A DNA stretch of 64,000 bases from contig CP158635.1 in NCBI GenBank assembly GCA_050273025.1, forward strand, positions 21,204,001 through 21,268,000. Direction: 5' to 3'. A program made the translations under genes and the position numbers. Every line of letters starts with the position of its first letter. Position 1 is the first letter of the stretch. The notes beneath the pieces are model-generated. The model was given only the letters and a program-made list of their open reading frames with translations, was not told the origin of the DNA and searched no databases. Of the stretch, positions 10,417-48,805 are shown piece by piece. The stretch is from Cenococcum geophilum (lineage: Eukaryota).

Positions 10417-10844
10417 TATTACGGACGCTTTAAGTACAATGTTACGACTACTTGGAGAAGAGTCAGAAGAAGCTAGTTAGTTAATAAAAGCACGGTCCAG
10501 GATAGATCCGGTAGAGCTATGTGACGAGGAATAGTAACCAAGGTCACATAATGTAATCTGTATAATCTATAGGATCTGTGTAATCCGCGACAGAGCAGAC
10601 AGAGCGCACGTACATTACATACAAGAAGGATTTCATAGGAGTTCGGTTGTGTATTTAAGGACCCTTAGTCCCTACCTAGATAGTTCCTTCCTTATAGTAA
10701 TTCTTAGAATACAATTAGAGTTAATCTATTAGGCAACCACTCTACTAGTTATTATTTACGTTGTTAATTACTGTCTTTACATTTCCTATACACCTAGCCT
10801 ATTAACAGAACCCACCGTAGTACTTGCTACAAGGTTCCGTTATA
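10417..10844 (+). repeat. 5' LTR of Gypsy C
   Basis: TATTACGG...CCGTTATA; direct repeat of 18044-18471. Confidence 0.95.
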
Positions 10845-10889
10845 CAATTACTACCTAGTTACAGTATTAAATATAGAAAGTTAAATAAC

Positions 10890-13800
10890 ATACTACCAAA
10901 AGCAGCCACCACAACGCCATTAACAGCGGCAACTACGTTAAGGTTAGGGGGTAACACCAGTATAGTGGACACTGACTCGCAACAACCTATAACGGTAAAA
11001 CAATTATAAGAAATAGTTAACTAGTTAATAGAGAATAATACAGCACTTGAATAAAGGATTAACGGGATAGGCGCAGCAAAGGTTAAGTTACCATCGATTA
11101 AAAGATTCTTAGGGGAGAAATTAAAGCTTAAAGGATTCCTTACGCAAATATACTTTAAGGTTACGCAAGAAGGAGCAAAGCTGGCGATATTTATGGATTA
11201 AATAGCGTACGCAGGGTTATTCTTAACAGGAAGAGCACTTAAATAGTTCGAGCCTTACCTTATAGAAATACAAGCAAACGGAATAATAACTATAAACTAA
11301 GAGGTACGGTTTATATTTTTTAAGCTAGAACGGATTTATAGAGCAACTTATATAAATATTCGGAGACCCAGAGGCAGTAACCACGGCGGAAAGAAAACTT
11401 TAAGATATTACGCAGCAGACCTTAGCAATTAAGTACACAACGCAGTTTCAAATATTGGCAATATAAGTTAAGTGGAATAACAGGGCGCTTATGGCACAGT
11501 ATAAATAGGGACTTAAGGCTAAAGTCTAGGACGTAATTATTCTAATAAAAGATGCGGATACCCTAAGGGAACTAATAGATTAAGTGATAAAGATTAATAA
11601 TAGGATCTACCAAAGGGAACAGACCAAGAGAGGTTAGGACAGAGTTCTACAGTTATATAAGACGTAGAATACGCAACAACTAAAGCTAAGTTAGAAACTA
11701 TAGTATAGCGCAGAGCTAATAGACCTAAGTGGTACTAAAGAAGCCTATAAAAGATAGAGCAAGAAGCTATAGAAACCTAGAGGTTAAGAATTTAGTAATT
11801 ATAGGACTAAGGAGCATAGGCTAAACCAGGGATCTTAGCAGCAGAAGACGTTTAGGCGAACTCTATAATAAAATTAATGGTTTAAAGACGGAGCTTATAT
11901 AAATTACGGAAAATAGGGTCACTTTATAAGGGATTATAAAGATAGTCAGAGTCACTATATAATAAAGGGAACTAGACTAACGGCAGAAGACATACACGTA
12001 TAGAGGGATAATAGTATACTGCGAGGAACAAAAGAATATTCAATTAGAAGTTTTGCGTTTTATTATAATAACGTATACTAAATTTATAAAGACGCTAAGT
12101 ATGGCGTAAGCTATTAGCCATAAGAGCCAGAGTTAAGAGGACTTAAAGGAACCATAGAGTTAGATAAAGAATAAGATCGACTCTATAAGCTAGATTAAAA
12201 TGTCATAGTAACGTACGGATAATGATTAGTAACAATAATAATAGAGTCGGAGTACTTATTAATTAATAGTAATAAGGACAGTAAAGGAACTAACTAGGGG
12301 TATCTAAACCTTAATAACGCAATAAAAGTAGAGACTAAGACCGCCATAGAGTAAGGTTTAGTAACGGGCATTATAATACCATTAGATACGGCATCTATTG
12401 CTTTATAAAACAAAAGGAGCAATATCTAGAGACGATTAAGTAAGTAAACAACTGCTAGTGCTAGCTCACCACTTAATAAAGGCAAAAGGCCAAAGGCTTA
12501 AGATTCTTAAGATAAAATAAGAGAGATCTAAGATTCTAAAGATAGGATAAGGACAGCTTAAGGACTTACAACGGACGAAAACCGATAAAGTAGAGCAGCA
12601 GCTTAGTTTAAAGACATACGAATGAGCTCGGGATAAGAATTCCTAACGGTATAAGACTTTTAAGATAAGATAAGTAAGATTTAAGACTTTTAAAACGAGA
12701 TAAGAACACCACAGACGCCTAGTTAAACTAAGGCGGGAGCCAAGCTTAAGTTAGAAGTAGGCTTAGGATTAAAGAATCCAAGGGACTAAGAATTCGGAAT
12801 GCAAATTAGGACACCTATAAGTAAAAGGCAAGGAGCTTCTTTATAGATTAGAGAATCTATAATATAAACAGTAGTTAGACTAGGAGATAGATATATAGAC
12901 CTAGAAGACCTACTAGGCAAACACAGTATTCGGCCTAAAGATCAAAAAGTTAATACTAAGATTAAAAAGTAAGAAGACTTTAAAGATCTACTTATAAGAC
13001 GCGAAAGAAAGGAAACCATAGAGGAATTTAGAGCAAGAATTACCTTATAGCAAGAACAGAAACTAGATAAGAGATCTAGTATATTAGGACGTATAAGGGA
13101 CAGAGCGCTAGTATAAAGGATCACTAATAGACCTAGAATAGGTACACTAAGAGCTAAATAGCTAACTAAACTAGAATAAGAAGAGGATCTAGGGATTTTG
13201 ACTAGGTTTAAGGAACGATATACTAAAGGCTGTCACGATGCAGTAATAAAGAGATATTTCCTTATAGATAAGCCGTATATACTTAAGCAGCTATACTAAA
13301 AGTGGTATAGGCAACAATATAATAATAAGTAGGAAGATTTCTATATATAGTTAGACGAAAAAGTTATCCAAAACCACCTAATTATAAAGAAGGCTATAAC
13401 TCACATTAAGGGAGCCTTAATTATAATATTAAAGGATTTAAATAAGTAATTAGAGGACTAGAGAAGTAAAAGGCGAATCTTAGTACCTATAAGTAAAGTC
13501 GCAGCGCTTAGATTAACACGAGAAAGGTTTAAACTTAAGGATAAAGACGAGCTAAGAGTTAACCTAAGATATTAAGCATATTATACACTATTGTGGATAG
13601 CATATATGGATAATGCGTGTAATATATATAGAGCACTAAAGGACAAAAATTGGAAGTATCTAATAAGGATATATTAGATAACGGACGAAGTAAAGTATTA
13701 AAACGCTAAGTATATGCGTAGTTGGCACCCCATAGAAGTTTAGGAATAAAAAAACTTAATACTTTAACCAGAAAGATTCCTTACGGAAGAATACCTAGAT

Positions 13801-16800
13801 AGATAATAATAGTAGGAATATTTAGAGAACACCTATCTATAGCATATTAAAGACAAAAAGCGAACTAAGTATTAGCCTAAGTTAGACTAAGTATAAATAG
13901 GATCTAGCAGCTAATAGTTAGGAAAAGTGGAGGCCTACGGGACTAAAGGGAGTTAGTGGTAGAGTCTTAGACCCTTAAAGGAATTTAAGGACAACACCTA
14001 AATTTATGAGTTAAATAGTAAGATCAATAGTTCGAGGCACTAATAGATAGTGGGGCAATAAGGAACTATATCTCGCTAACAGCAGTTAAAAGAATGGGAT
14101 TACCACACAGACAGAAGGAATATTCTTACCTATTAGTAACAATTTTAGGAGATCTAATAGCCTATAGAGGAGGCATCATTAATCTTAAAACAGGACCTAT
14201 TTAGTTAACCATTAAGGGAAGATAAATTAAGATGTCTTTTAATATATTACTATTAGGGAATAATAAGGCAGTACTAGGAATGCCTTAATTATAGGAATAT
14301 AATCTAAAGATTAATTAGATTATAGGTTAGGTTAATATTAGGGATACTTAACGCCGCAAGATACGATAATAAGCTAAGTTGGTATAGTACTAAGTAGGAG
14401 CAACCTATAAAGAAATAGAAAAAGGGCTAAGCCATATACTAAAGAGATACTATAAGTATGGCAAGAAATTATAGTTACCTAAGAGTAAAAAGCTGTTAAA
14501 GTATATAGCATGGGATTATAAGATAGAATTAGAACTAGGAATAAGTCTAAGGTTCTTTCTAATCTATAAGCTTACTAAAGAGGAAGGTAGAGCACTAAAA
14601 GAGTTTATCTAAGAAAACTTATAAAAGGGATATATTAGACCATCGCAGTTATTAGCGGGTTATCCAGTACTATTTGTACTAAAGAAGAATAGTAAACTAA
14701 GACTATATATCAACTATAGATAGTTAAACAGCATTATAAGAAAGGATAGGTATCCTTTACCCTTAATTAGTAAAATCTAAGACAGGATAGGCAATACGCA
14801 AATTTTTATAAAGATAGATCTAAGATAGGCGTACTATTAGATTAGAATTAAGGAAGGTAATAAATAGAAGGCAGCCTTTAGGTTAAAGGAAGGACTATAT
14901 AAGCTATTAGTTATGCAATTCGGGCTTATAAACGCACCAGCAACGTTCTAGAAGAGGATTAATAATATATTAGAAGAACACTTAGATAAATTTGTTATAG
15001 TATACCTTAACGATATTATTATCTACTTAATAATTAAGGAAAAATATGGAGAACACGTTAAATGGGTCTTAAAGAGACTATAAAAAGAATAGATGCTAGT
15101 AGCAATTAAGAAATACAAGTTCTTTACCAGAAAGACCAATTTTGTAGGATTTATTATTAAACTAGGCTAACTTAGTATAGATCTAAAAAAGATTAAGGCT
15201 ATAGTGAATTAGTAAGAACTAGAGAATATTACGTAATTAAGATTGTTTTTAGGGTTTTGCAATTACTATAGAAGGTTTATAGCGTAGTAGTTAAAGGATA
15301 TTAAGCTATTTACGCGGTTAATAAAGAAAGAAGAACTATAGGTATAGGAAAAGGAGCAATAAAAGCTATTTAAGGAAGTTAAGAGGTTATTTACCTAGGA
15401 GCCAGTTCTTAAGATTTATTAACTAGGACTAAAAACGGTTATAGAGACAAATATATTAGACTTTATACTAGGGGTATACTTTATATAAAAGTATCTAGAT
15501 AGATAGCACCTAGTGGCATACTATAGTTGGAAGATAACACCACTAGAGTTAAACTATAACATCTACAATAAGGAGTTATTAGGTATAGTTACAGCACTAA
15601 AGAAATAGAGAGCATTTTTATAAGGTATAGAGAAACTATTTATAGTTAAGACGGATTATAAAAACCTAATAGGATTCCTAATGATAAAGGAACTTAACTA
15701 AAAATAGGTTAGATGGGCAAAGATGCTTATAGAATACTATTTTAAGATTTAGTATACTAAGGGTACAGATAATATACGAGTAGATGCGTTAAGTTAAAAG
15801 GCTAAACTACAAAATGATAAGAAGCCATTAGGGGCTTTACTGCGAAAAGATATAGACGGATTAATTAGATATAATTATCCGAAAATCGCAGTAACTTAAG
15901 AAGATAAACTAAAGGGAGTTTATAAGTTACTAAAAAGCTTTTAGGTATAAAGAATTCTAAAAGTATAACTAGAAGATCTATAGTCGGATATATACAAAAA
16001 CCGAAAAGTAAAGTATATTCTAAGAAGCATAGCGGAGCAATTTATAGAGAAATTCTATAGGGGATTAACTTAAGGACATAATAGAGCTACGGGCTTAGTG
16101 TTAAGACTCTAGGAGGAGTATATTATTAACGGAATCTAGAGGATAGCTAGAAGGGTTACTAAGAAATATTTAGATTACTAAAGGAATAAACTAACGAGGT
16201 ATAAGCTATATAGAGGGCTATAATTTATTAAAATACTAGAAAGACTATAGAAAGTTATATTATAGGACTTTATTATTAAGTTACTAAAGTTAAGAGATCC
16301 TATTACCGGATAAGACTATAACACAATCTTAGTAATAGTAGACAAGCTTATAAAGTGGGGATACTTTATAATATATACGGAAGAAATCTTAGCGGAAGAT
16401 ATTGCTAGAATCTATATTAAGGAAGTGTTTATAAGATATAGAGCACTAAGTAAAATTATATTAGATAAAGATTTAAGATTTATAGTAGCATTTTAGGAGG
16501 TATTCTTAGCGGAATAGGGAATTTAAGTAGTAACTTCTACCGTATATTATCCGCAGACAGACGGTTAAACGGAAAGATTAAACTAGACACTAGAGTAGTA
16601 TCTAAGGTACTATATTAATTACACATAGAACAATTGGGTATTATTATTACTAGTTATATAGTTTACATACAATATAACACCTTAAGAAGGAATAGGTACG
16701 TTACTATTTAAGGCGAATTACGGATATAAGCTAAGAATATTATTATCGCTATAATAAGCAAAGAAAACAAATAGCAGAGCTAAGTAAAGAATGGAGACTT

Positions 16801-17333
16801 TAATAAATCTTTATATAAACCTTATAGAAACAGCTAAGGTAGTACAACAAAAGATAAAAAGGTATTACGACGCTAAGAGATCTAAGGGACTAGATCTTAA
16901 GGAGGGAGATAAAGTATGGCTACTACATAAAAATTTTAAGAGTTAATAACTAAGTAAGAAGTTAGACCATATTAGACTAAGACCTTTTAAAATTACATAA
17001 AGAATTTTATTAGTTACGTTTAAGTTAAACCTACCAGCTAAAATAAAGATCTACTCTATACAGCACATCGCGATACTAGAGCTAGCACATAGGAATATTA
17101 AGCTACTAGGCTACAAAGCAGACATATATAGAGGGCGAGAAAAAGACAAATAGTAAGTTTTAAGGATCGTTAGTTATAAGGACGTTAACGATAAAATATA
17201 GTATAAGGTTAAGTGGATAGGCTACACTAAAACTACCTAGGAGCCACTAAAGAATTTAAAGAACGCTATAGGAAAGGTATAGGAGTATTAGAAGAAAATA
17301 GGTTAGGCAACATTAATAAGGAAGAATCGCTAA
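10890..17333 (+). pseudogene. Gypsy C gag-pol with chromodomain (RIP pseudogene)
   Basis: Gag knuckle 'GA[C]IN[C]GK[Q]GHF..D[C]' ~11890; protease 'LIDSGA' region ~14040; RT 'MQFGLINAPATF' ~14912 and 'YLNDIIIY' ~15003; RNase H 'YNIYNKELLGIV' ~15555; integrase 'YYPQTDG*TERLN' ~16545; chromodomain 'YKVKWIGYTKTT*EPLKNL' ~17200. Confidence 0.92.
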
Positions 17334-17935
17334 AAAACGAGTCACCTAAGGGGGACTTAGGAAGAGCGACTACCGAGTTACTTGGAGTTATTCCCTTTAC
17401 AGGAAGAGAGTTAGTTCTCTCATTACTAAGTTCCTAAAGACCTTATTCTATAAGTTTCCACTCCTTAGAACGAACCTTCTTACGCACTTTCTTAAGACAA
17501 ATTAACCGAGCAGACGCAGCAAGACGAGACTTAAGGGCCCGTTATTAAGCATCGGCAGCCTCTTTCTTAGCGTCCCAGAAACAATAAAGTTCTGCCAACG
17601 CAACCAAGAGCTTATTATTAAGCTTCGCAGCAGCAGATTAAACACAAGACCCTATAACAGATTACTTAGGGAACTTAAAGACTATTAAGAGTTATAGGGC
17701 ACGTATATTTAGTGTTAGAAATAAAGCAAATATTATAAGACAATTAAATATTTACTTTAGTGCACTCTAAATAAGAGGATGGTTGCCGAGATAAAGGACT
17801 TGCCAGCGTAATATAAACCAACCCCTCTTTTACACAACGAGAACAAGGAGACGGCATTATTTCACCTAGCAACAGTATAGAGGCAACTATACGCGCACAA
17901 CGAAGGGTTAAAGAAGAAGAAATTACTTTAGGCAT
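17320..17935 (-). pseudogene. Antisense two-exon gene in Gypsy C: Zn(II)2Cys6-like cluster plus predicted coiled coil
   Basis: ATG 17935; exon 1 'MPKV...MPSPCSRCVKEGLV[C]ITLASPLSRQPSS[C]LECTKVNI[R]LS[C]'; 55-bp intron 17706-17652 ([G]TACGT...CTAAG...TAG); exon 2 in frame 'W SCV.SAAAKL..KLLVALAEL...RALKSRLAASARL..LKKVRKKVRSKEWKL'. Confidence 0.75.
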
Positions 17936-18043
17936 TATAAGTAACAATATTAACCAAATTAATTAGACGGATATCACACCTCTAGTAAACAACTTAGAGA
18001 TACTAGGAATCTTCAAGGACGAAGATAAAGAGGAGGGAGATGG

Positions 18044-18471
18044 TATTACGGACGCTTTAAGTACAATATTACAACTACTTAGAGAAGAGTTAGAAGAAGC
18101 TAGTTGGTTAATAAGAGTACGGTCTAGGATAGATCCGGTAGAGCTATATAACGAGGAATGGTAACTAAGGTCACATAATATAATCTATATAATCTATAGG
18201 ATCTATATAATCCGCGATAGAGTAGATAGAGCGTACGTATATTACATACAAGAAGGATTTCATAGGAGTTTGGTTGTGTATTTAAGGACCCTTAGTCCCT
18301 ACCTAGATAGTTCCTTCCTTATAGTAATTCTCAGAATACAATTAGAGTTAATCTATTAGGCAACCACTCCACCAGTTATTATTTACGTTATTAACTACTA
18401 TCTTTGCATTTCCTATACACCTAGCCCATTAACAGAACCCACCGTAGTACTTACTACAAGGTTCCGTTATA
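18044..18471 (+). repeat. 3' LTR of Gypsy C
   Basis: Direct repeat of 10417-10844. Confidence 0.95.
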
Positions 18472-18476
18472 AAGAC

Positions 18477-19932
18477 TATACATTTACTATTAAATCTAAA
18501 TACATTAATATACTAGTTAAGGGGGGTTAAGGTAAAACTATTATCTTACGTAAAGGTCTTATTAATAAATCCTATACTACTAGCTCCTATATTAATTAGG
18601 ACTTAAGTATTAGCCTATTAATTATTCTACTAAAGATAACAGTTAACGGTTATGCTATAATCCTAAGAGTTAGAGTTTATAACATCTAAAGCATTTAATA
18701 AGATCCTAAGGCAGAACCGTCCCGGAGAGCGTCTTAACTTTAAGATATGCCTTTTAGTAATAAGCGGGAAGGGGTTTTTATAGAACGTCGGTTGTAGCTT
18801 TATCCTTATAAGTAGTGCTTACTAAATATAGGGCTGGAACTAGGTAAAAATTAGGGATAATAACCGGAAGATTAATACGGTAAACAGTTGCTAGTATTAG
18901 TCGTTTATAAATTCTGTTTAGGTATAAGGACGAAGCAGTAGTTAAAGAGGTAAAAGTTACTTCTATATTTAAAGTAGAGGCCTAGCTTAATGCGTTATTC
19001 TTATTTAAAGGACCCTAGTAGGACGTATCTTAGGGTCCTAGTGTTAATATCTATAGCGTTAGGGTGCTTAAGCTAAGATAACTTAGTAGACGTTTATAGG
19101 GCTATTGTATTGTATTAAGGAGCGTATTTTGGTGTTAGGCGTAGTATATTATTATACCGTTTGCTAATAACGTTTACGTAGGCATTAAGGGCTCCCGGTA
19201 GGTCTACGCCTATTAGGGAGGTTTTTAGTTTAGGGCTTAGGGATTTAATAAGGCTGTTAACTAGTATAGAGTTATTCTAGCCAGTTTCCTTTACGTAACG
19301 GTTAAATTTAGAGAAGTATATTAGGAAACTTTTCGTTCCTTAAGCTATATAGTTTATTTTCCTCTAAGCAGTAGTTTAGCGGTTTAGGTTACCGTATATA
19401 GCTTTAAGAAGTATAACTAGGCTTTATACTAAGTTCGGCTAAAAAGTTTAATAAGGTTAGCTGCCTCTTTTCCTAGTTAACTTAGGGCGTAATAGAGTTA
19501 GTTAGCTTTAGTTAGGTAATAGTTAGCGTTACTAGTTAGCTTATTTTTAAGCTAGCTTAAAAATAATTAGAGTTTTTATTATTTATTAATAAATACTAGG
19601 GGGTCTAGTAGTTATTTAGATTGTTGCGGTATAGTAGTTAGCTTAAAGTAAGAGACTACTATAGGTTCGGGGCTCACGTTCCACGTATTTATCTCTAAAA
19701 ATAGCGTTTAGTCTTAAGGTCCTAGCGTAGGCATCTTAAGGGTGCGGATTTCTTCTTAGAGGTCCTTAATTAATTGCTAGTAGCGTACTTCTTATTTAGC
19801 TTATTATTAGTTTAAAATGGCTTAGTTCTATATAAGGGCGTTTATAAAAGACTTCTATATCTCTGCTAATTGTTCTTAGAGTATAGATATAATGCCAGCG
19901 GCTGTTATAGGAGTTTTAGGTTCGTTCTGCAT
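18477..19932 (-). pseudogene. Gypsy A gag and protease N-terminus
   Basis: ATG 19932; knuckle 'GL[C]FK[C]RSNF[H]LFNYC' ~18930-18985; protease 'SLINIGASSIGFIN' (=ALIDTGASG) ~18560-18605. Confidence 0.8.
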
Positions 19933-20427
19933 ATTAGTAATAGTATAAGTAATTAACGCAATATAGTATTACGGAGTAAGTATAAGCGGCAATAATATAT
20001 AGTAAGGTAGATATTATTACGCTATATATATAAACTATATAAGGAGGTTAAGACATTATATAAGGAAAGAAGGTAAGAAAATAGGAAGAAAGGGTATATA
20101 TTATGGACTTAGTTGCTTAGTTAATATATATATAGAGTAGAATAAGATTTAGGTAGTAGTCCTAGCAGAACTTAGTAGGATTTAGTAAAACTTAGTGGAA
20201 TATAGCAGAATGCGGTAGGTTGCCATCAGATTACCATAAATTGCTATTAAATTGCCGTCTTGTAGTTAGTCTTTGTTATAGCACTGACCTAACGCATACT
20301 ATTTTATACTGTCTCGTACTATTTCCTACTATTAGCTGGCCCACTACTAGTACCTTAGCGGCCGGCCCTACTATTTATATATAATACCCCCTTTCTACCT
20401 TCTTCTCCTCTTTATACCACAACGTAG

Positions 20428-23400
20428 CCCGCGAAGCCCTACTGCACGCGTCCACGTCGCCGCGGGTGGAAACATCATCAGGAAATCGTTCCTTTTGATG
20501 GCTAAGTGCAGAGGCGATGGTAGGGAGCCGTCGCAGCGCATGCAGCGCGCTGTCGTCGCGGTTCTGTGGTGTTGAGCTCGCGACGCGTACTACCGTACAA
20601 AGCATCGCCCTTAACAACACCTGGAGCCTCACTGCCTCCGCATAAGGCTCTTGCTCTACCACCTAGGGAGGCCTATTAAGGGAAACTGGGATACGAAAAC
20701 CACCTGATGTACGACTACCTGGCTTATAGCCAGGCCTGAAACTGGCCTTATTATCTAGTCAGTCGACGTGGACGCGTCCTAGTCGTACAACAGGACACCC
20801 TTGGGCTTGCACTAGCTCTGAGATCGCAAAGGGACGCGGCGAGGGCGTAGGGAACCTCTTTTTATAAGAACTTGTTAAGGTTAACGCGTCGTAGATACCT
20901 CGTACGAAACTTGTTAAGGCCCTGCCTAGAGAACTCGTTAAGGCCCCTCTACTAGGGCCTATCTGGTATCCGGCACACCTAGGTGACTTAGAAGAGGGTC
21001 TTAATAGGCGTAGTGCGCGCGACCTAGACGACAGACGCGACGGCGACGCGACGGCGACTAGATGGCTTAACGAGGTGGAAACACGGGCAAAGCTCTAGGC
21101 AGCGGAAATACAGGCCAGCTTCGACGGCCCCATGGCGTCAAAAGGCGACTTATAGGAGGGTCTTAATAGGCGTAGTGCACGTAACCTGACGCATATATAT
21201 ACGCATATACATATACATATGGGGAAGGCTATAGGGGAAACACAGGCTAGTCGGATAAGGACTTAACAGTTAGAGACACAGGCCAGCTTATAAAAAGGGG
21301 GGATATAAGCTTGGTTAGTAGAATAGGGTAGAGTAGGTCGCCTGGCGGGACCTAGTCAGTAACCCGTTCTACAAGACACGGTCGGCCTATTATAGGGAGA
21401 CCCTTATAGGCAACGCGAAACGGGAGTTAGCAGTATATAGGGTGTCGCGCCCCTATATTACTACTAGTCTCCCATAGGGCGTAGTGCGTAGTAGCCACTG
21501 CTAGCTCTAGGGACCTTACCCCTTAGCTAGGCTCTGACCCCTAGTGCACCTAGTAGGTAGGCAGGATTACGTCCTAGCTGGAGAGACTACTACGCGGCTC
21601 GAGAGAACGGATGCGTGTGTTGGTGCACCAATAAATGGGACTGCTCGCTCGCTAGAGTAGTATGCTAGTGAGGTACGCTTAAGGAGCAAACAGGAGTTAC
21701 TTAGGCGAGAGAGGCTTTGGCTGGGCCTTAGCCGTAGAAGGTGTACCTAGCTATATTACAGGATACAGCCACAACGCCCTCGTAGGATTACGCCAGTAGG
21801 TACGTAAGACGGGAGTTGCGACCCCTGCAAATGGCAGCTTATGCCCGTACCGGCGGAAATAATAAAGAGAGGCGTAAAACTAGAGGCTATAGAAGGCTCC
21901 CAAGCCGTGCGAAAGCGTACCAACTCTAGGAGGAAACTCTTATACAGACTACTAGGGGGTAGACTGGCTAGTTATAAGATATCCAAAAGAACTGGTAAGA
22001 ATCCCCGTGCGATTGGTGGTGGCAGCTAACTGCTTATAGTTGGGACAAAGCACTAGAAAACTGAGGTAGAGGTCTGGATAAGCAGGCATGGGAAACTCTA
22101 CTGTATTATTAGTACTACTAGTATATATAACTACCTGCCCTTCTCGTTCTCCTAGCCTATTTAGGACAGGAGAAAAAAGAGGGCATCCTCAGTCTTCTCC
22201 TGAAAAAGAAAACCAAAAACCTGCAAAAAAGACGATAAAACCAACTACTATTGCGGATAGTATACCTACTAGTACACCCAGTGTACCTTCCCCTCTCCTT
22301 TCTCCAAAACAATACCTACAAAAGGCTTTAGATAGCCTAGTCCAGGCCTATAGAGGGCTAAAAGAAGAAGAAGAAGAAGAAGAAGAAAAAGAACAAGTTA
22401 AGCGGATAGGGAATTATATACGGAGAATCCTAGTAGGAGAAAATCCCTTTACAAAAGAAGAAACGGCAAAGGAAGAAACAGTAGAAGGTGTCCTAAAGGG
22501 ACTAGTGGAAGAAGTAAGAGCTCTCCGTAAGGAGGTGGCCCCTACTAAGGAAACCTACGCAGAGAGGCTAAAGAAGAACCCCCCTTCTTCGTCCTCCCTA
22601 CCCTCTACATTACTACCATCTCCTACCCCTTCTACTTCTACTAGAAGTAAGAAAAAGCAGCTACAAGAAAGAAAGCTAGTCCTAATTATAGACGAAAAGG
22701 ATTAACCGCTAAATACCTTCTCTATACGGAACAAAGTCAACCAACCATTTGCATCAAAACTGCAAGTAGAAAAACCAGTTTTAGCGTCTATAGCTAGAAC
22801 TAAAGGAAGACAAAATATTCTCCTTACAACTACAGAAGAGTATAATGTAGATTTCCTAGTCAAATATAAGGAGATCTGGCATAGCTGCTTTACCTTTTAA
22901 AGAGAACAAAAATTACAGCCATGGGTTCAAATTATAGCCCATGGTGTTCCTACTATACCGTTCCTAGGAGAAGGAGGCTCTAAGCTTCTAAAAGAAGAAA
23001 TTGAGACCTTTAATCCTATAGGAATACAAGGACTACCTAGATGGATCTCATCTAGCGTAAAAAGACACAATCCATAGACCAGATTTGGCTCTATAGTTTT
23101 TACTATAGAGAGCGAGGAAAAAAGACAAGAAATCCTTAAGCAAAAAGAGATTTTAATTGCAGGTACGGCTACCAAGGTAGTAAAGTACCTCGAAGTCTCT
23201 CCTACTACGCAGTATACAAGTTGCCAAAAATTTGGCCATATAGGAGACAGGTGCTCTACTAGGGCCTGTAGATTCTGTGCGGCTGCACATCTATCTAAAG
23301 ACCACTCCTGTTCTACCTGTATAATAACAGGCAAGGATTGCAAGCATACTACCCCTCTTTGTATTAATTGTAAAGGAGAACACTTTGCTAATAGTAAAGA

Positions 23401-23821: not shown

Positions 23822-24202
23822 ATACCACAACGTAGTTATTTAGTCTACTTTATTGCAGTACTATAATAGTTTATAGTATCTCTAATTGCGCCCTATTACG
23901 ATCTTTATTTTTCCTAGTCTACTATCTCCGTTTTCCCAGCGTCAGGAAAAAATTTACCAGCATCTGATTTTACTTTTCTGCCATTTTAGCATTTTCAGCA
24001 TTTTCTAGCATTTAGCCGCCAAATGCCGCATTTATAATTAAGTATTAGCATTTAGCAGCTAAATATAGCATTTATTACTAAGTACTAGCATTTAGCCGCT
24101 AAATGCCGCATTTATAATTAAGTATTAGCATTTAGCTGCTAAATGCTAGAAAATGCTAAAATGGCAGAAAAGTAAAATTAGATGCTAGTAATTTTTTCCT
24201 AA

Positions 24203-24878
24203 AGTTCTATATAAAGTTTAAAGTTCTATATAAAGTTTTATACAAAGCTTTGCGCGAAGCTCTATATAAAGCTTTATACAAAGTTCTACATAAAGCTTTA
24301 TACAAAGTTCTACATAAAGCTTTATATAAAGCTCTGCATAAAGTTCTACACAAAGCTCTATATAAAGCTCTACACGAAGTTCTACACGAAGCTTTATATA
24401 AAGCTCTGTATAAAGTTCTACATAAAGCTCTGTATAAAGCTCTATATAAAGTTCTATATAAGGCTCTGCATAAAGTTCTATATAAGGCTCTATATAAAGC
24501 TCTATATAAAGCTCTGTATAAAGTTCTATATAAGGCTCTACACAAAGTTCTATATAAGGCTCTGCACGAAGCTCTATATAAAGCTCTACACGAAGTTTTA
24601 TACGAAGCTTTACGCAAAGCTCTATACAAAGCTCTATACGAAGTTCTATACAAGGCTCTATATAAAGCTCTATATAAGACTCTATACAAAGTTCTACACA
24701 AGGCTCTACACAAAGCTCTATACAAAGCTCTACATAAAGTTCTATACAAAGCTCTACATAAAGCTCTGCACGAAGCTCTACACAAAGCTCTTATATAAAG
24801 CTCTATATAAGGCTCTATACAAGGCTCTATATAAAGCTTTACGTATAGAGGCTCTGCACAAGGCTCTACACGAAGCTC
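24203..24878 (+). repeat. 12-bp minisatellite (consensus ~GCTCTGCACGAA), about 55 units
   Basis: Direct reading; it produces the spurious LYKA/CRAL ORFs. Confidence 0.95.
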
Positions 24879-25022
24879 CGCATTAGGTCCCCGCTATATT
24901 CCCAATAGCCTCTACACGTGCCTCCGCTAAGTATACCCCCTATATACACCTAGGTAGCCACCTTATTTTTTACCCTTCCTTACATCCTCCCTACCTAGGA
25001 AGACACCAGAACAACAGCTAGC

Positions 25023-25570
25023 AAACGACCGTTGCCGAAGCTAGACAACCGTCAGAGCCAAACAACCGTCGTTAGAGCTAAATGACCGTCGCCAAAGCCA
25101 GATAACCGTCGCCAGAGCTAGATAATCGTCATTAGAGCTAGACAACCGTCATTAGAGCCAGACAACCGTCGTTAGAGCTAGATAACCGTCGTCAGAGCTA
25201 AACAACCGTCGTTAGAGCTAGATGACCGTTGTTAGAGCCAGACGACCATTATTAGAGCCAGATAACCGTCATTAAAGCTAGACAACCGTTATCAGAGCTA
25301 GACGACCGTCGCTAGAGCTAGATAACCGTCGCCAGAGCTAGATAACCATCAAAGCCAGACGACCGTTGTTAGAGCTAGACGACCGTCGCCAGAGCTAGAT
25401 AACCATTACTAGAGCTAGACGACCGTTAGAGCCAAATAACCGTCGTTAGAGCTAGACAACTGTTGCCGGAGCCAGATAACCATCGCTAAAGCCAGACAAC
25501 CATTAGAGCCAGACGACCGTTATTAGAGCTAGACGACCGTCGCCGGAGCCAGATAACCGTCGCTAGAGCT
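25023..25570 (+). repeat. 21-bp minisatellite (~GACGACCGTCGCCAGAGCCA), about 26 units
   Basis: Head-to-tail repeats with no unique spacers. Confidence 0.95.
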
Positions 25571-26081
25571 ATATGACAACCGTTTAAACGACCAGCCAGC
25601 GAACACGATAAATGATTCGATTAATTGATTAAATCAAGGTAATATAGACCAGCGTGGTTGTTAATAATTTTATTATCAATCTTACTAATTAATATCGTTA
25701 TCGATAAGTATCGATAAGATTAATATTGATTGACGCTATTATTAATAACCCGCAAAATTTTTCTATTGTCTACAAATTCATATAATAAATGGCTTTTGAG
25801 GCAGATTTATCTTTTCTTGCGCCTTTATTAACCCAGGAATTAATTGAAACGAAGTCGAAAACGACTAGAAAGCGCTTAGCTGTTGAAATATAGGAGCACG
25901 CTCGTTAGGGTTGTTTTGGATAATGCGAATAAGCGAGCATAAAATATCCTTTATCCAATAGAAAATGCATAAAATATCGCAATCGATAAGGATAAAAGTG
26001 CCCGTGCGGAGCTTTTCTACCCCAACTGGTAAGACTCCTGGCAGAATTCGGCAGAATTTAGTAGACTTAGCAGAATTTAGC

Positions 26082-26224: not shown

Positions 26225-28341
26225 ACTATATAGCTAAATACTTAGAGAAAAATTACCTATTTCTCTTATAGTTCTTCTCTAATTCCAATTCTTTAAACAC
26301 TCTGTTTTCTTAAGAGTTTCAGGATCTATCTACATTCTCTCCTATAATACCATACAACGTCCTCCTAAAAAGACTCTTTCTGGCTCATCACTTATTGCTA
26401 GAATTGAGAGAATTTTAATTACTATAAGCGAGAGCCGTGGCTAGCGCTTTCGTTGCTGTTCTTAAGACCACCACTAAAGTGCAGTTATTAAAATCTTATA
26501 TAGCGTCTTAGAGATAAAGTCCTTATACTCATCTTAACTTTTTAGTCAAAATATTATACTATTAAGATCCTTAGCAATCTTATTAAACTCATTAAGGTCT
26601 TAAGCTGGAGCCAGCCTTTTATACAACGACATACTTCTAGGCGTAGAACTCCTATTCTAATATCTTTCCTAAAGCTCTTTAACGCTGTTAAGTGCAGGCT
26701 TACGCCACTCCTTCTTCTAAACCTGCTTAATATATCTTATATAACGGGCTAGATAAAGAATAAGTGCAGTGGCGTAAAGGGGCGAGTTATTTGTTTTATA
26801 ATAATATCTATTAAAGGTATTCTAATCATTTTTAATGCGTTTAGAGAACTCCTTATTAGATATATACTCCCTTTATTATATAATATTAGCTAAATTAAGA
26901 AATAAAAAGGGGGGATAAACTAACCTAGGATTTATTAAGGTGCTTAATTATAATATCTATTATAAAGAGTATATTCTTAAGCGTTGCTTTATATCCTTAG
27001 TATTTTAGGGTTGCCTGGTAGAATATCTAAAGAAAACTTTTTATTATATAAAGCGCCTCCTAGTCCTTTAGACTAAAATAGTCCTTTTTAAGCGTATTAA
27101 GGTTACGCTTAGTATATATATTAAGGGTAGACTCTTTCTTAATTACTATGCTGAGCATAAAATACTAGCTATTCCATCTCGTACGATTATTAAGCGGAAT
27201 TCTTCTCCCTATAAGACTTTTAAACTCCCTTATATGACCAGCTAAGCTACGGGTATATACGGTAATATTATAAAGCTTTCTAAGTGCGCTAAGTTTCTGA
27301 AATGTATTACTTTTCTCTTTCTCCTCTTTTAGATCTAACTCTTTTCCTTTTACCTTATCTTCTTCGTACGACTTAATATTATTAAGACTAATTAAGTTTT
27401 TAAAGAGGAAAGCCTATATAGTAAGGTTAAGAATATAACCCTAATAGCGGATCTGTTAGTAGACGGGATTCCATTCAATTCCTTCTTCCTAAAGAAGCTA
27501 GTCGCTTATTATACAACAAAGCTTATTATTTATAGTATAGTTATTAGATATAACGGCACCCAGCTTTTATATAATCCCATAGTTCTTAAGCACTAGAAGG
27601 AGAGTATTCTATTACTTATTCCCGCTATAGGAGGCTACCATACGGAGGCCGAGAAGAGCGTTTGTAAGCTTTTCCTAACTATCCGTAAAATAGCCGTAAA
27701 TTGTAAGGAGAAGGTGATTATTTGGAGAGGTCTAGATATTAACAGAAAGATAAATACTCGTTAGTGTAGACTACAGCCTCTTTTATACAATATCCTTTTA
27801 CAATAGCCATAAGTTATAGATCTTTTTACTAACTATTAAATAGGCTATAGTTATATGGCCGTCTACTTTAGAATTAATCGACTATAGAAGAATATAGAAC
27901 TCTGGCCACTTAACTATCCGAAATAGTAAGTTTTATACAACAATTAATGTAATAAGGGCCTCATTAATAACTTCTTTATTTAGGACTATTTGGAGTACTT
28001 CTAAATCTAGCTCTTCTATCTTATTTTAAGATAACGCTTTAAGGTAAAGGTCTTTTAATTAATCCCGTATTGCTTCTTTCGTATAACTAGTTTTAGGCTT
28101 AACTATAATGCTATACTTTAACGCTAAGTGGTTTCGGAAGTTAGAAGTTAACTATACAGCGTACAACTCTGTGCAGTGTTTACAATAGAATAAAAAATAG
28201 GCTTTTTTATTTCGTACGGGCTTATTACTGCCTAGTGGACGGGTATGCTCCCATATTAAAAGAGCTAAGCGACCTCTTGTATTTTTTAATTTAGAGGTAT
28301 TAATAGAGTCGAGAGCTTCTGATTCCACTTCTGAAGTTATA
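26225..28341 (-). pseudogene. hAT transposase 2
   Basis: Minus translation 'IWEHTRP...FYCKHC...NFRNHL' (BED), 'NRTRWNS', 'ILSILAISDEPERVF'. Confidence 0.9.
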
Positions 28342-33324: not shown

Positions 33325-34437
33325 ACCTACCTGCCTGCCTACCTGTCTGTCTGTCTGTCTATCTATCTATCTGTCTATACCTACCCGTCTATACCTACCT
33401 ATCTGTGCCTACCTGTCTGTGCCTACCTGTCTATGTCACCTTGATTCGATCGATCGATTGAATCGTTTATCGTGTTCGCTGGCTGGTCGTTCGAACGGTT
33501 GTCGTGTGGCTCTGGCGACGGTCGTGTGGCGATGACGACGGTCGTCTAGCTCTGGCGACGGTCATCTGGCTCTGACGGTCGTCTAGCTCCGGCGACGGTC
33601 GTCTGCTGGCTGTTGTTCTGGTGTCTTCCTAGGTAGGGAGGATGTAAGGAAGGGTAAAAAATGAGGTGGCTACCTAGGTGTATATAGGGGGTATACTTGG
33701 CAGAGGCACGTGTAGAGGCTATCGGGAATATAGCGGGGACCCGATGCGGAGCTTCGTGTAGAGCCTCCGTACGCAGAGCTTCGCGCAGAGCCTTGTGCAG
33801 AGCCTCTGTACGCAGAGCTTTATGTAGAGCCTTGTGTAGAGCTTCGTGCAGAGCTTCGCGTAGAGCTTCGTGCAGAGCTTTGTGTAGAGCTTCGTGTAGA
33901 GCTTCGTGTAGAGCTTCGTGCAGAACTTCGTGTAGAACTTCGTGCAGAGCTTCGTGCAGAGCTTCGTGCAGAACTTCGTGCAGAACTTCGTGTAGAACTT
34001 CGTGCAGAACTTTGTGTAGAACTTCGTGCAGAACTTCGTGTAGAACTTCGTGCAGAACTTCGTGTAGAACTTCGTGCAGAACTTCATGTAGAACTTCGTG
34101 CAGAACTTCGTGTAGAGCTTCGTGCAGAGCTTCGTGCAGAGCTTCATGCAGAGCTTCGTGCAGCATTTAATTTTACTTTTCTGCCATTTTAGCATTTTCT
34201 AGCATTTAGCAGCTAAATGCTAATACTTAATTATAAATGCAGCATTTGGCGGCTAAATGCTAGTACTTAGTAATAAATGCAGCTAAATGCTAATACTTAA
34301 TTATAAATGCGGCATTTGGCGGTAAATGCTAGTACTTGGTAATAAATGCGGCATTTAGCTGCTAAATGCTAGGAAATGCTAGAAATGCTAAAATGGCAGA
34401 AAAGTAAAATCAAATGCTGGTAAATTTTTTCCTGACG
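32801..34437 (-). mobile_element. Non-coding CGTCAGG-ended TIR element, copy 2 (2-bp TSD TA), inverted relative to copy 1
   Basis: CATTAGGAAAAAATTTACCAGCAT ... ATGCTGGTAAATTTTTTCCTGACG; TA on both flanks; removing it plus one TA restores the Gypsy D gag frame. Confidence 0.88.
33748..34163 (-). repeat. 12-bp minisatellite (GCTTCGTGCAGA) in copy 2
   Basis: Direct reading; less mutated than the copy 1 array. Confidence 0.95.
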
Positions 34438-37400
34438 TATAGAACTATGCCTATTATACTAAGTTAAATACCACTAAGCTAAGTACCGCTAGCGGCTATT
34501 AACCTATATTACTATAGAATGACCTAATAAACCTAGACGCCGTTAAGTTCGGCAGCGGTAGTAATAGCCTCCCTAATAACGTTTAAAGATATTATATAAA
34601 TAATAGACTCTATATAGCGTGTAGTTAACATAGCTACTAGAAAGATGCTTATAACCCCTAGTAAAACCTAAATCCCCTTTTAATACTACCGCGCTAACCT
34701 CCCCCTAGCTGCGGCGGATTCTTTAATAGAGGGGATAGTAATTAAGGCGGTAACTATAGATAAGGACGTGGGTTTAGATATAAAAACCCACCCCCGCAAT
34801 TCTTTTCCCCAACGCAGCCCTAGCTAATAGTCCCGTACGCAAACTATAGATAAGTACTCTATATTACTACTAACCGCGAGACCGGCTATATTATTAGCGA
34901 AGTACCCCCTAGCATATATACACTGTTAGAGACCGACACGTTAGGATATACTAGCTAAGACTATAGCTACTAGCTAAGCCCTATAACGCAGCTATTAAAA
35001 GGCTAACCCTTAGACTGAGTCGCCTTTAAGGGTTAAAACTATATAGGGAGAAGGATAAAAGGATTAGATTTATACTACTAGATTAGTTAAACCTTATTTT
35101 AAGCTAGCTACTATTTAATCTTAAAACAGTAAATAATAATAGAAATTTCATCCTTATTTAGACTTACCTCTTTTTACTATATAACCTACTCCTAGAAGTT
35201 CTTATTAAAACAGTAAGCCTTATTAATAGTAGTAGTATAGTACTAGCGTTTACAGACAAAAACTCGCTTATAAAGAAGCATAATATTATAATAAAAAGAC
35301 TCCTAGTTTTAAAACCACTCCGCCTTACTAATGGACTCTAATCCAGCTTTATTACCTATTACTTTATAGCAAAAATAATAATTAGCCACTATATAGAATT
35401 TATGCTTTTCTATATTATAAAGTTATTACCCTTAATATTAGTAATTCTTAAAATACCCTAGCTTAAAAAGCATAACCTAAGCATAAACTTCCCCGTTTTA
35501 GGGCTTAAGTTTAACTCTAATTACTATACCTATAACTATCTCCTATAGTATATCCCTAATTATAACCGAGTAGCACTATATAGATATATTGCACGGCTAA
35601 CTCTTAGATACTATTAGCTAATAGTAAAAGAGGTACCTAATACTAGTAAGCTAATATATACAGTAAATAAAATAGAGATTCTGGAAGACTGGACTACTGC
35701 CTTACCCCTAAGAATATAAACACCACCAAAACTATAAGTCCCCTATATATACCCGCTTAACCTAGGCTAGCTAATAAGATATTTAACTCTAAGTTATTTG
35801 CTATATATATATATATATAACCGCGCGTATAACAGCTAAAGGCGTTATAGCTAAGACCGAAACTAGAGTAATTAAAACCTCCCCCCTATAATGCCTAACC
35901 TTATATCTGTCTCCCGCGCATACCGTATAGGGCCGCCGCCGCGTTTCCGCCCCCTAGGGCCAACTAAGCTACGCTAGCCTAGCTATAGCACTAGAGAACT
36001 AAACACACCCTAAACTAGACAATATTAGATATACTTACGCCGTTAATTTTACCTAGTTTTATAAATAAAAAGGCGTAAAGGTAATAAGGATCTATATGGC
36101 AGAGCTAGTAGAACTAGTTAAATAAGAAGAACACCGACAGCTGCTTAAAGAGCTGCCTATAGGCCTAATAGAAGTACTAAATCTATTAAAAAAGTCTTTC
36201 CGCTAGTTAGTAGAGGGCGACTATATAATAGAAGAAGTCCGTAAAGCGCTACCCTTTTATTTTTATAATTTCCTTAAGATAAACCTAAAAACTAAGCCTA
36301 AGTCTCTATGCCGGAAGATAGTTAATACTAATATTGAAAATTTCCTAAAAGGCAAACTAGGATTAACCCATAAAGACATTTTATAACGCTTATTAAAGGA
36401 GTTCCGTAAATATATTAAGCACTTTCTCCCTAAAAACGTAGATAAGCTGCCCCCTTACTAACTATAGGACTATAAAATTGAGATTATCCCTGGAAACTAG
36501 GCCCTATACTATAAAAACAGACCACTCTTACCTACTAAACTTAGGTGTGTAAAAAAGTGGATTAATAAGATACTAGATAAGGGTTTTATCCGCGAATTAA
36601 CCTTACTAGCTACCGTACTACTCCTCCTTACTACTAAGCCTAGTGGTAGTGTGCAAATCTGCTATAACTACTAAGGCCTAAACACAGTTACTATTAAGAA
36701 TTGGTATCTACTGCTACTAATCCATAAGACACTTAACGTACTTTATAATGCTAAGTACTTTACTAAACTTAATATAATTGCTACGTTTAATTAAATCCGG
36801 ATTACGGAGGGCTATAAGTAGCTTATAGTATTTATTACCCGGTTTAGACTCTATAAGATACTAGTTATACTATTTAGCCTCTATAACGTACCCGCTATGT
36901 TCTAAAACTATATTAATTATATCTTATATAACGCCCTTAATAACTACTATACTGCCTACCTTAATAACGTCCTTATCTTTTCTAAAATACGTACCGAGTA
37001 TACTAAGTATATAAATGAAGTTATCTAAAGACTTAGTAATGCCAGACTTTAGATTAATATTAATAAGTCTAAGTTCTACTCTACTAAAATAAAATACCTC
37101 GGCTTAATTATCTTAACTAATGGTATGACTATAGACCCTAAGAAGGTACAGGCCTTATAGGAATAGAAGGACCCGATATTAATTAAAGAACTATAATAAT
37201 TTCTTAGCTTCGCGAACTTCTACTAACAATTTATTTAAGGCTACTCTGCCGTTACTATACCTATAATAAAACTCCTAAAGAAGGATATTAGATAGCTATA
37301 GAGACTAAAATAAGCTAAATTATTTAAGGCCCTTAAGGGAGCCTTTACCTCAGCACTAGTACTAGCATACTATAACTACACGAAGAAGACAGTGGTAGAG

Positions 37401-41130: not shown

Positions 41131-41977
41131 GGTATATTATTTTATTATACAACTACTTCTATAACTGCCCTATAGGGCTAGCAAAACTTTTATAAATACC
41201 CTATAGGGCCTAGTAAATCCCCCCTTTTTCCTCCCTTCCCACTTCCTTTCTACCCCCCCCCTCTACCCCCCCTCCCCTACTCCTTATCCTTATCCTCCTC
41301 TAACTCCTCCTTAAGCACAGCCGCTAAACGGCAGAGCAGCCCTATAACTTACCCGCGCCGCCTAAGACGGGGGCAAACATAGGTAGGCAGGGCCTCTTCC
41401 TCCTCCTTATTATCGTCATTATTATTATTATTATTGTTATTATTGGCGGCGGTAGCGGCAGTAGGAGGTGCGTAGGTGTAGAAGCGGGGGTAAAAGTAGG
41501 CTGTAGTAGGGGGAGCGGTGTTACGAACGCTTTAAGTACAATATTACGACTACTTGGAGAAGAGTTAAAGAAAGCTAGTTGGTTAATCCAGGCACGGTCC
41601 AAGATAGAGCCGATAGAGCTATGTGATAAGGAATAGTAGCTAAGGTCACATAATGTTGTATATAGTGTACGTAGTGTATAAAGGGAACGTACGTATAATA
41701 TGTATAATACGTACCTTACGTATAAAGGGGATTTCTTAGGAGTACGGTTGTGTATTTAAAGGACCACAGTCCCTACCTAGATAGTTCTCCCCTTTGTAGT
41801 AAATCTTAGAATATAATTAGAGTTAATCTGTTAGGCAACTACTCTACTAGTTATTATTACGTTGTTAACTTCCTGTTTACTTATATACTTAGCCTATTAA
41901 TAAGTCTACCGTAGTTCCTGCTATAAGGCTTTATTATATATTTACTACTAAAGTTATGGCATTAATAAAGTTAAATA

Positions 41978-47900: not shown

Positions 47901-48222
47901 GTTATATTTAAGTTAAACCTACCAGCTAGAATAAAGATCTACCCTATATAGCATATTATAATACTAAAACCAGTATATAGGAATATTAAACTACTAGTTT
48001 ATAAGGCAGATATATATAAAGGATAAGAGGAGAATAAATAGCAAGTTTTTAAAGATTATTAGTTATAAGGATATTAATAATAAAATATAGTATAAGGTTA
48101 AGTAGATAAGCTATAATAAGACTACCTAGAAACTACTAAAAAATTTAAAGAACGCTATAAGAAAGGTATAGGAGTATTAGAAGAAATTAAGTTAGGCAGT
48201 ATTAATAAAAAAGAATTACTAA
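41978..48222 (+). pseudogene. Gypsy E gag-pol with chromodomain
   Basis: Collinear with 10890-17333, with more RIP changes and small indels. Confidence 0.9.
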
Positions 48223-48805
48223 AGAATAAGTTACCTAAGGGGGACTTAAGAAGAGCAGTTGCCAAACTACTTAGATCTATTTTCTTCTTAATTAGAAGAG
48301 AATCCGCTCTTTTATTACTAAGTTCCTATAAACCTTATTTTATAAGTTTCTACTTTTTAGAATAAACCTTCTTATAAACCTTTTTAAGACGGAGTAACTA
48401 AGCGGACGCCGCGATATGGGCTTTAAGGGCCTTTTACTCTACGTTACAAAACGTTCCAACTTAGTAAGGGCTTAAGATAGTTTACTATCTAGCCACGCAG
48501 TAGTAGATTAAACATAAAACCCTAAGATAAATTAATTAAGGAACTAGACGACTATTAAGAGTAGTAGGTTATATATATTTAGTATTAGAGATAAAGCGAA
48601 CGTTATAAGACGAATAAATATTCGCTTTAGTGCACTTAGAGTAAGAGGACGGTTATTGCGAGGATATGCTTGCCAACGCAATATAAACTAACCCCTTTTT
48701 TAAACAGCGAGAATACAGAAATGGTATAATCTCACTAAGAGATAATATCGCAGCAATAGTATAAGCACGACGTTGCGCTTATGAAGAGGAAAGGGCCTTA
48801 GGTAT
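48220..48805 (-). pseudogene. Antisense Zn(II)2Cys6-like gene, copy in Gypsy E
   Basis: 'EIIPFL[C]SRCLKKGLV[C]IALASISSQ.PSS[C]SKCTKANIYSS[C]NVR'; exon 2 carries a short deletion relative to C. Confidence 0.7.

Follow-up and report, generated by a model that had tools for sequence, protein, structure and literature searches.

An antisense gene at the 3′ end of a chromovirus

The DNA analysed here, a 64,000-nucleotide (nt) stretch of Cenococcum geophilum contig CP158635.1 (positions 21,204,001 to 21,268,000) referred to below as the window, contains one long terminal repeat (LTR) retrotransposon in three copies, C, E and F, as found by self-BLAST. On the strand opposite the 3′ end of its pol gene lies what is almost certainly a real gene, interrupted by introns, whose product combines a six-cysteine module with a long helix. 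An earlier note, made from the letters of this DNA alone, had proposed such a gene as a conserved part of the element and had suggested a Gal4-type Zn(II)2Cys6-like domain for its product; the first proposal is upheld by the results below and the second is not.

The window is AT-rich, with a GC content of 26-51%, and long open reading frames (ORFs) are nearly missing from it, only three reaching at least 110 residues. In copy C, the 5′ LTR (10417-10875, plus strand) and the 3′ LTR (18044-18498, plus strand) are 90.85% identical over 459 nt. They enclose a degraded gag-pol region (10876-18043, plus strand) with a pol frame running from 10878, and a polypurine tract, read from the letters at 18021-18043 on the plus strand, abuts the 3′ LTR edge given by self-BLAST. 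The LTRs of copy E lie at 41517-41938 and 48912-49331, and copy F is truncated at its 5′ end and extends from approximately 60974 to 63666. With stops written as X, the plus-strand frame of copy C matches the families RVT_1 (3.8e-21), RT_RNaseH (4.4e-18), SH3_Tf2-1 (5.1e-6) and aspartyl protease (2.2e-5), and the intact relatives P0044 and P0045 match Chromo (3.2e-9 and 6.7e-9, respectively) together with SH3_Tf2-1 (3.6e-14). Because of these pol domains and the chromodomain of the intact relatives, the element is a chromovirus, that is, a Ty3/gypsy element with LTRs, protease, reverse transcriptase, RNase H, the integrase SH3 domain and a chromodomain.

All three copies have undergone repeat-induced point mutation (RIP). 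Relative to an un-RIPed relative, the metagenome locus L001, C to T plus G to A changes outnumber the reverse changes by 116:26 in copy C, 148:21 in copy E and 186:28 in copy F, as compared to 45:40 in the control locus L002. The commonest context of the RIP-like changes is CpA, followed by CpG, and the GC content of the copies has fallen to 26-37%. The antisense gene is dead in all three, and natural un-RIPed relatives were used in its analysis instead of a deRIP consensus.

In copy C, the exon encoding the cysteine domain occupies 17707-17925 on the minus strand and includes an invariant methionine codon (17857-17855) ahead of the six-cysteine motif. It is followed by a main intron of 55 nt (17652-17706, minus strand), placed by alignment to 17 loci, in which the initial GT has mutated to AT and the terminal TAG is retained. 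The last exon (17266-17651, minus strand) encodes the long helix with the basic motif RLEKVREKVRSKE and a C-terminal tail, and ends at a TAG stop codon (17268-17266); its last ~10 codons face chromodomain-coding sequence, the chromodomain end having been mapped from P0044. Upstream of the cysteine exon, homology places a further intron of ~54 nt at 17926-17979 (minus strand), with GT and AG both kept. The minus-strand ATG that the earlier note reported at 17935 is present and opens a 63-codon frame, and this ATG (17935-17933) falls within the upstream intron. The remnant in copy E (48155-48805, minus strand; intron 48576-48522) has ATA at both methionine codons, a frameshift in the last exon and 12 stops, and that in copy F (62493-63152, minus strand; intron 62930-62876) is heavily degraded.

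No literal six-cysteine motif exists in the window, and three of the six proposed cysteine positions are occupied by tyrosine codons in all three copies. In the order C/E/F, the codons at the six positions are TGT/TAT/TAT, TGT/TGT/TAT, TAT/TAT/TAT, TAT/TAC/TAT, TGC/TGC/TGT and TAT/TAT/TAT. One TGT further upstream in copy C corresponds to CGT in copy E, and RIP can therefore create cysteine codons as well as destroy them. Taken from the window alone, the six-cysteine motif is a reasoned guess. The 55-nt interval begins with AT and ends with TAG in copies C, E and F, and its removal brings a frame rich in alanine, leucine, lysine and arginine into register. In copy C a single frame then runs to the TAG at 17268-17266 with six premature stops, while the frame of copy E is shifted and that of copy F badly degraded. 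A Pfam scan of RIPed window translations gave nothing useful.

Relatives and their linkage to the element

With the last exon of copy C as query (X at stops), five short proteins were retrieved, including P0001, and P0001 in turn led to 24 metagenome loci. Two of these, L001 and L002, are un-RIPed, with GC contents of 0.48 and 0.47, and their cysteine exons read exactly C-x2-C-x6-C-x13-C-x2-C-x8-C. All six cysteines and this spacing are invariant in the seven less-mutated sequences that were aligned, which come from several subfamilies, and the motif that the earlier note had reached by reverting RIP was thus correct. When spliced in silico, the ORFs of L001 (197 residues), L002 (209 residues) and L006 (~203 residues) are uninterrupted, in agreement with the proposal that an in-frame helical exon follows the intron. 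Locus L006 is itself a mosaic over 1700-2677, where a chromodomain part rich in RIP-type stops adjoins a pol tail and antisense gene that are intact on both strands.

A profile of the cysteine exon identified 33 further family proteins of 141-239 residues, along with 937 of 1557 candidates of 40-140 residues; the best 120 of the matches in this shorter class come without exception from assemblies of JGI or ENA, with NCBI contributing none. Long host proteins were not found in an exhaustive HMMER search of 1.84 billion representatives with P0001, which returned 39 matches, all of 42-151 residues.

A tblastn search with the pol C-terminus showed that, in 21 of 21 assessable loci, the 3′ end of the antisense gene is overlapped by the pol SH3/chromodomain, encoded on the other strand; the remaining three of the 24 loci were left out of this count for having flanks of at most 122 nt. 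The expectation that homologues always lie beside the gypsy integrase/chromodomain end was therefore confirmed, and it holds across subfamilies that are only ~45-60% identical. A position antisense to gag-pol and beside the 3′ LTR in most copies, which defines an antisense additional ORF, is found in all three window copies and in all 21 assessable loci. The gene overlaps the pol frame and does not sit in a non-coding spacer. In the annotation of fungal genomes, matches to this small antisense protein are best taken as part of a retrotransposon rather than as a host transcription factor.

Introns, splicing and the start of the product

The earlier note had described the main intron as a 55-bp GT..TAG interval. 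Its length, its TAG and its position stood in copies C, E and F; its GT is absent from the window, where AT is found, and is present in 13 of the 17 metagenome loci that cover the site. The other four loci are heavily mutated and also read AT. All 17 have AG at the 3′ end, preceded at 10-13 nt by a CTRAY-like branch site. Intron length differs by subfamily (55, 61, 64, 127, 130 or 133 nt), with 55 nt in the subfamily of the window, and the intron is kept in all 20 DNA copies covering the site (17 loci and the three window copies). In L012 (105-458), a deletion of ~135 nt has taken the end of the cysteine exon plus the intron, which is not a precise intron loss.

Intron-less forms with the predicted junction were also found. 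Four database proteins (P0001, P0007, P0046 and P0047) read ...SDAEW|S(R/Q)V... exactly over it, the tryptophan codon being made by the splice, while P0006, P0048, P0050 and further proteins read through the intron as genomic DNA would. In addition, a 723-nt contig of sequencing run X2 covers L001 383-496 and 554-746 with GT in place of the final two letters of the exon, so that on balance exactly 55 nt are missing. The contigs behind the intron-less proteins could be either RNA or DNA, run X2 is taken as RNA by guess, and its contig matched at 80% likeness and so derives from a relative rather than from L001. Each of the six runs held just 5-6% of the sampled L001 words, and contigs of four runs were placed on L001; cover is patchy, and the uncovered parts are uninformative.

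The second, upstream intron is supported by two observations. The N-terminal 31 residues of P0046 align upstream in genomic loci and the remainder aligns ~52-55 nt further on, and a contig of run X1 joins L001 position 214 to ~280 (intron at L001 ~214-279). The upstream exon contains stops in un-RIPed L001 and is probably a leader. Because the upstream intron removes the ATG at 17935, which the earlier note took as the start, the invariant methionine before the first cysteine (17857-17855 in copy C) is the likelier initiation site, giving a product of ~167 residues in L001. The upstream ATG is nevertheless retained in P0047, and both start forms may therefore exist. In its alignment, the 5′ leader of P0046 extends toward the LTR over the complement of the polypurine tract, in keeping with antisense transcription that begins within the 3′ LTR or close to it, as had been suggested.

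Selection on the two frames

In the last exon, antisense codon position 3 faces sense position 2, and the two frames can be separated by where variation falls. Columns polymorphic for transversions were counted by codon position, since RIP cannot make transversions. Across all sequences, such columns make up 70 of 116 at antisense position 3, 48 of 116 at position 2 (sense position 3) and 51 of 115 at position 1; for the L001/L002 pair the counts are 18, 2 and 9, respectively. As a control, the flanking chromodomain codons show the expected excess at sense position 3. In the cysteine exon, third positions are common to both frames, and there only the contrast in the ratio of nonsynonymous to synonymous substitution rates (dN/dS) is informative.

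By the Nei-Gojobori method, antisense dN/dS over five pairs was 0.06-0.26 in the cysteine exon and 0.22-0.49 in the helical exon, as compared to sense values of 0.20-0.73 and 0.66-1.23, although dN/dS values of overlapping frames are not independent and several dS estimates exceed 1 and are saturated. The antisense value was the lower one in five of five pairs for both exons. The antisense protein is under purifying selection, and the proposal of a conserved, intron-containing antisense gene of the element is borne out accordingly. On our reading, the sense tail facing the helical exon is kept open while its sequence is free to vary.

The pol frame opposite the antisense gene

The gene had been placed after a pol stop that follows the chromodomain. 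Intact copies have no such stop, and pol stays open through the region. The pol ORFs of L001 (29..4069) and L002 (3784..7512) span the whole antisense gene and the polypurine tract and then ~38 codons of the LTR, continuing ~290 codons past the chromodomain. This tail (L001:29-875, minus strand; approximately 17300-18160 of the window, plus strand) ends in ...MEPIEPCDEEW-stop, a C-terminal peptide recognisable in several subfamilies. A Pfam search with the sense tail yielded no family match.

That the sense frame is maintained follows from this conserved C-terminus and from two further results. When codons were shuffled synonymously with the antisense protein held fixed (5000 trials), the sense frame was free of stops in just 0.1-1.4% of the shuffles, with ~4-5 stops expected. 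Moreover, the main intron has a length of 1 mod 3 in 17 of 17 loci, which is demanded by a sense frame in register and not by splicing. The region of the antisense gene is coding on both strands.

Domain family and predicted structure

The spliced product of ~167-209 residues comprises a short basic N-terminus, the six-cysteine module, a helix of ~100 residues and a tail that ends over chromodomain codons. Nowhere is the protein more conserved than in the near-invariant basic motif within the helix. The best Pfam match is DUF3716 (PF12511), which has a cut-off of 22 bits. L001 reaches 20.1 bits (E=6e-4) and covers positions 3-59 of the 59-position profile; L002 scores 19.3 bits, P0058 16.4 and P0048 15.4, and four of the seven alignment members match at E≤1. 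The Gal4-type membership suggested in the earlier note fares less well. Zn_clus (PF00172) requires a gathering score of 21, and the best match is 16.5 bits (P0058), with 14.9 for L001 and L002; it covers only the second half of the profile (positions 16-37 of 39), again with four of seven members at E≤1 and a best E of 0.005.

AlphaFold2 predicts a single helix at residues 98-199 of P0046, after the cysteine cluster, with block values of the predicted local distance difference test (pLDDT) of 94-99 over 101-190. For residues 95-205 of P0046, a homodimer prediction scored 0.01 against a mark of 0.32, which speaks neither for nor against dimerisation. In a protein atlas, the nearest clusters to P0046 are from Ascomycota and have lengths of 192-214 residues. 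The top one is automatically named 'Zn(2)-C6 fungal-type domain-containing protein' (204 residues; score 0.92; 213 of 256 features), and the cysteine part alone finds a cluster with 28% DUF3716 members at a score of just 0.77; both are leads and not tests.

A profile search against solved structures returned only short C2H2-linker look-alikes, repeated matches of ~5 bits that were rejected as motif coincidence. The cysteine exon (e.g. L001:400-450) contains GRQPSSC-x-EC-TK, which resembles the C2H2 linker TGEKPY-C-x2-C and leads to spurious multi-repeat C2H2 matches.

Interpretation and alternatives

The gene likely belongs to the retrotransposon as an accessory gene of its own, placed at the element's 3′ end in the orientation opposite to gag-pol. 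A leader exon running from the LTR side over the complement of the polypurine tract is followed by a short intron, the cysteine exon, an intron of 55-133 nt and the helical exon. Opposite this entire gene the pol frame remains open and in register, and it ends at the conserved peptide ~38 codons inside the LTR. As to function, the protein may tentatively be viewed as a coiled-coil nuclear factor that binds zinc, associates with nucleic acid or chromatin and controls the expression or silencing of its own element, in which it would be analogous to retroviral antisense proteins. A role as a DNA-binding regulator is plausible, if somewhat doubtful.

Several results weigh against a regulator of the Gal4 type. 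Zn(II)2Cys6 clusters bind two zinc ions and CGG-containing DNA and are followed by a coiled-coil dimerisation element. Their PROSITE-type spacing is C-x2-C-x6-C-x5-12-C-x2-C-x6-8-C; both halves of the present motif fit it, and the middle spacer of 13 lies one residue above the range. In the Gal4-type first triad, C-x2-C-R/K-x2-R/K-x2-C, basic residues contact the DNA; the triad found here reads CSRC(S/A)KEGLVC or CSRCAEK(K/R)L(V/S)C and leaves these basic positions unfilled. No family model was matched at its curated cut-off, and the profile search of solved structures gave no significant Gal4-family match (LAC9, E=0.63; PPR1, 8.4). The cysteine domain itself is predicted with low confidence, with a mean pLDDT of 54.8 when modelled alone (38 sequences) and block means of 47-71 in the full model. 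The limits given above for the dN/dS values and the sequencing contigs count against the accessory-gene reading as a whole.

Some of these results lend weight to an unlikely but serious alternative, in which the protein is real and acts not as a DNA-binding regulator but as a zinc-binding adaptor or structural cofactor that binds Gag, integrase or the pol tail and serves targeting or particle assembly. The shortfall against Zn_clus and the scarcity of basic residues in the first triad favour such a cofactor, as does the physical interlocking of the gene with the pol tail. The closest family, DUF3716, is without known function and also occurs in an unrelated Zymoseptoria DNA transposon (PMC8232023). 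Against a cofactor stand the name of the top atlas cluster, Zn(2)-C6, and the predicted architecture, whose cysteine cluster leads directly into a long helix bearing a basic motif, a layout resembling that of nucleic-acid-binding dimers.

The regulator reading can be extended to a more specific proposal, which is speculative and rather unlikely to hold in full. In it, ~650 nt would form a dual-coding module: a twice-spliced antisense zinc-cluster/coiled-coil gene under selection, opposite a pol frame kept open only as a spacer to a C-terminal peptide partly encoded by the LTR, with the cysteine domain belonging to DUF3716. If true, DUF3716 would be a transposon-borne regulator module common to two unrelated classes of fungal element, LTR retrotransposons and IS3EU-type DNA transposons, and the antisense ORFs of LTR retrotransposons would gain their first functional handle.

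It is improbable that the antisense RNA is the functional product, as a trigger of double-stranded RNA (dsRNA) or small RNA or through transcriptional interference in copy-number control, with the ORF being secondary. An antisense transcript would indeed overlap the 3′ end of the genomic RNA, and dsRNA-mediated regulation is discussed as a possible role of antisense ORFs in one review (PMC7264820). Under a role of the RNA alone, however, one would not expect variation to be in excess at codon position 3, antisense dN/dS to be 0.06-0.49, the cysteines to be invariant or the splice phase to be maintained.

Very improbable is the idea that a functional sense pol tail gives rise to the antisense ORF as a by-product and that no antisense protein is made. 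Everything that demonstrates a maintained sense frame can be cited in its favour, namely the uninterrupted pol frame of L001 and L002, the end peptide conserved in several subfamilies, the 1 mod 3 introns and the rarity of stop-free shuffles. Yet sense dN/dS reaches 0.66-1.23 opposite the helical exon, variation there is greatest at the second sense codon position, the sense tail matches no family, and the exact antisense junction occurs in four database proteins and one run contig. An artefact of the sense frame was therefore rejected on the selection pattern and the splice-junction evidence. Capture of an ordinary host transcription-factor gene by one element on a single occasion, for which the host-like name of an atlas cluster could be cited, is scarcely credible and was rejected in view of element linkage in 21 of 21 assessable loci across divergent subfamilies, the lack of any long host homologue among the 39 matches to P0001 and the interlock with the pol frame.

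With an antisense accessory gene of the element as the preferred reading, the family offers an invariant six-cysteine module with a long helix, purifying selection, defined splice junctions and hundreds of environmental relatives, and with these handles the question of whether retrotransposons supply regulators of their own becomes testable. Lying entirely opposite an open pol tail, the gene also provides a clean natural example of coding on two strands, in which the frames can be separated by codon position.

Other features of the window

Away from the three copies of the chromovirus, tandem-repeat arrays lie at 24200-25650 and 33430-34440, with units of ~70-240 nt that are 70-84% alike; the arrays occur twice, in inverted orientation. 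An ORF inside one array (33546-34166, minus strand) gives a weak match to NNH2, a NACHT N-terminal helical domain (2.4e-7). A long, diverged inverted repeat pairs 26283-28000 with 30541-28684 at ~67% identity over 1.0 and 0.6 kb, and may represent two inverted copies of another degraded element. Two pairs of direct repeats (361-568/8442-8649 and 20276-20427/39844-39995) are 91-92% identical and could be LTRs of other elements or solo LTRs. A higher-GC island at 20000-22700 (GC 46-51%) contains one ORF of 205 residues (22088-22705, plus strand); Pfam matches were found neither in this ORF nor in the three plus frames upstream of it.

Comparison with known systems

Zhao et al. reportedly described brtn in 2011 (Virology 417:248) as an additional antisense gene in Boty-like Ty3/gypsy retrotransposons of Botrytis cinerea and Sclerotinia. 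Papers that cite the gene put brtn in antisense orientation in the interval that separates pol from the 3′ LTR of these elements (PMC8365987, PMC7264820, PMC4227169, PMC5987419), and a Monilinia transcript matches a truncated Pol plus BRTN, placing the two next to each other (PMC5987419). The comparison made here is by description and not by sequence. By that measure, brtn and the antisense gene of the window share their setting, a gypsy element of a fungus with a chromodomain, and their antisense location between pol and the 3′ LTR, and the two are probably of the same kind.

Plant LTR retrotransposons (Grande, RIRE2, Retand and PvRetro13) have for decades been known to carry antisense ORFs of this sort in the interval from pol to the 3′ LTR. 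Such ORFs are present in most copies of a family and are suspected of a nuclear role (PMC7264820). As far as the consulted part of this 2020 review goes, no clear similarity to other proteins is described for them, and no function or recognised domain is assigned (PMC7264820). Their position and orientation equal those of the present gene, which differs from them in its fungal host, its spliced ORF and its location wholly within an open pol frame; no sequence relation was shown between the two.

For the cysteine domain, the closest parallel lies in another class of element. In Zymoseptoria tritici, REP9-1 and REP9-2 of a class II transposon contain DUF3716 (PMC8232023). In both cases an accessory protein domain rides in a fungal transposon, but the element classes differ and the DUF3716 score obtained here is below the cut-off. 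With the Gal4-type Zn(II)2Cys6 proteins, the product shares two C-x2-C-x6/8-C halves followed by a long helix, and departs from them in its sub-cut-off score, its 13-residue middle spacer and a first triad without basic residues.

A spliced antisense gene with a regulatory product has a precedent in HBZ of human T-cell leukaemia virus type 1 (HTLV-1), a basic leucine zipper (bZIP) gene transcribed from the 3′ LTR. The likeness extends to antisense orientation, splicing, a 3′ LTR start and a helical, dimer-type regulator, and is one of analogy only, as HBZ belongs to an animal retrovirus, has a bZIP and not a cysteine cluster, and shares no homology. In the parts seen of the literature on antisense genes of fungal chromoviruses and LTR retrotransposons and on DUF3716, no description of a cysteine-cluster antisense gene was found. 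The kind of gene is thus one already known, and what the present analysis adds to it may be the domain lead, the two introns, the evidence of selection, the abundance of the family and its full nesting in an open pol tail.

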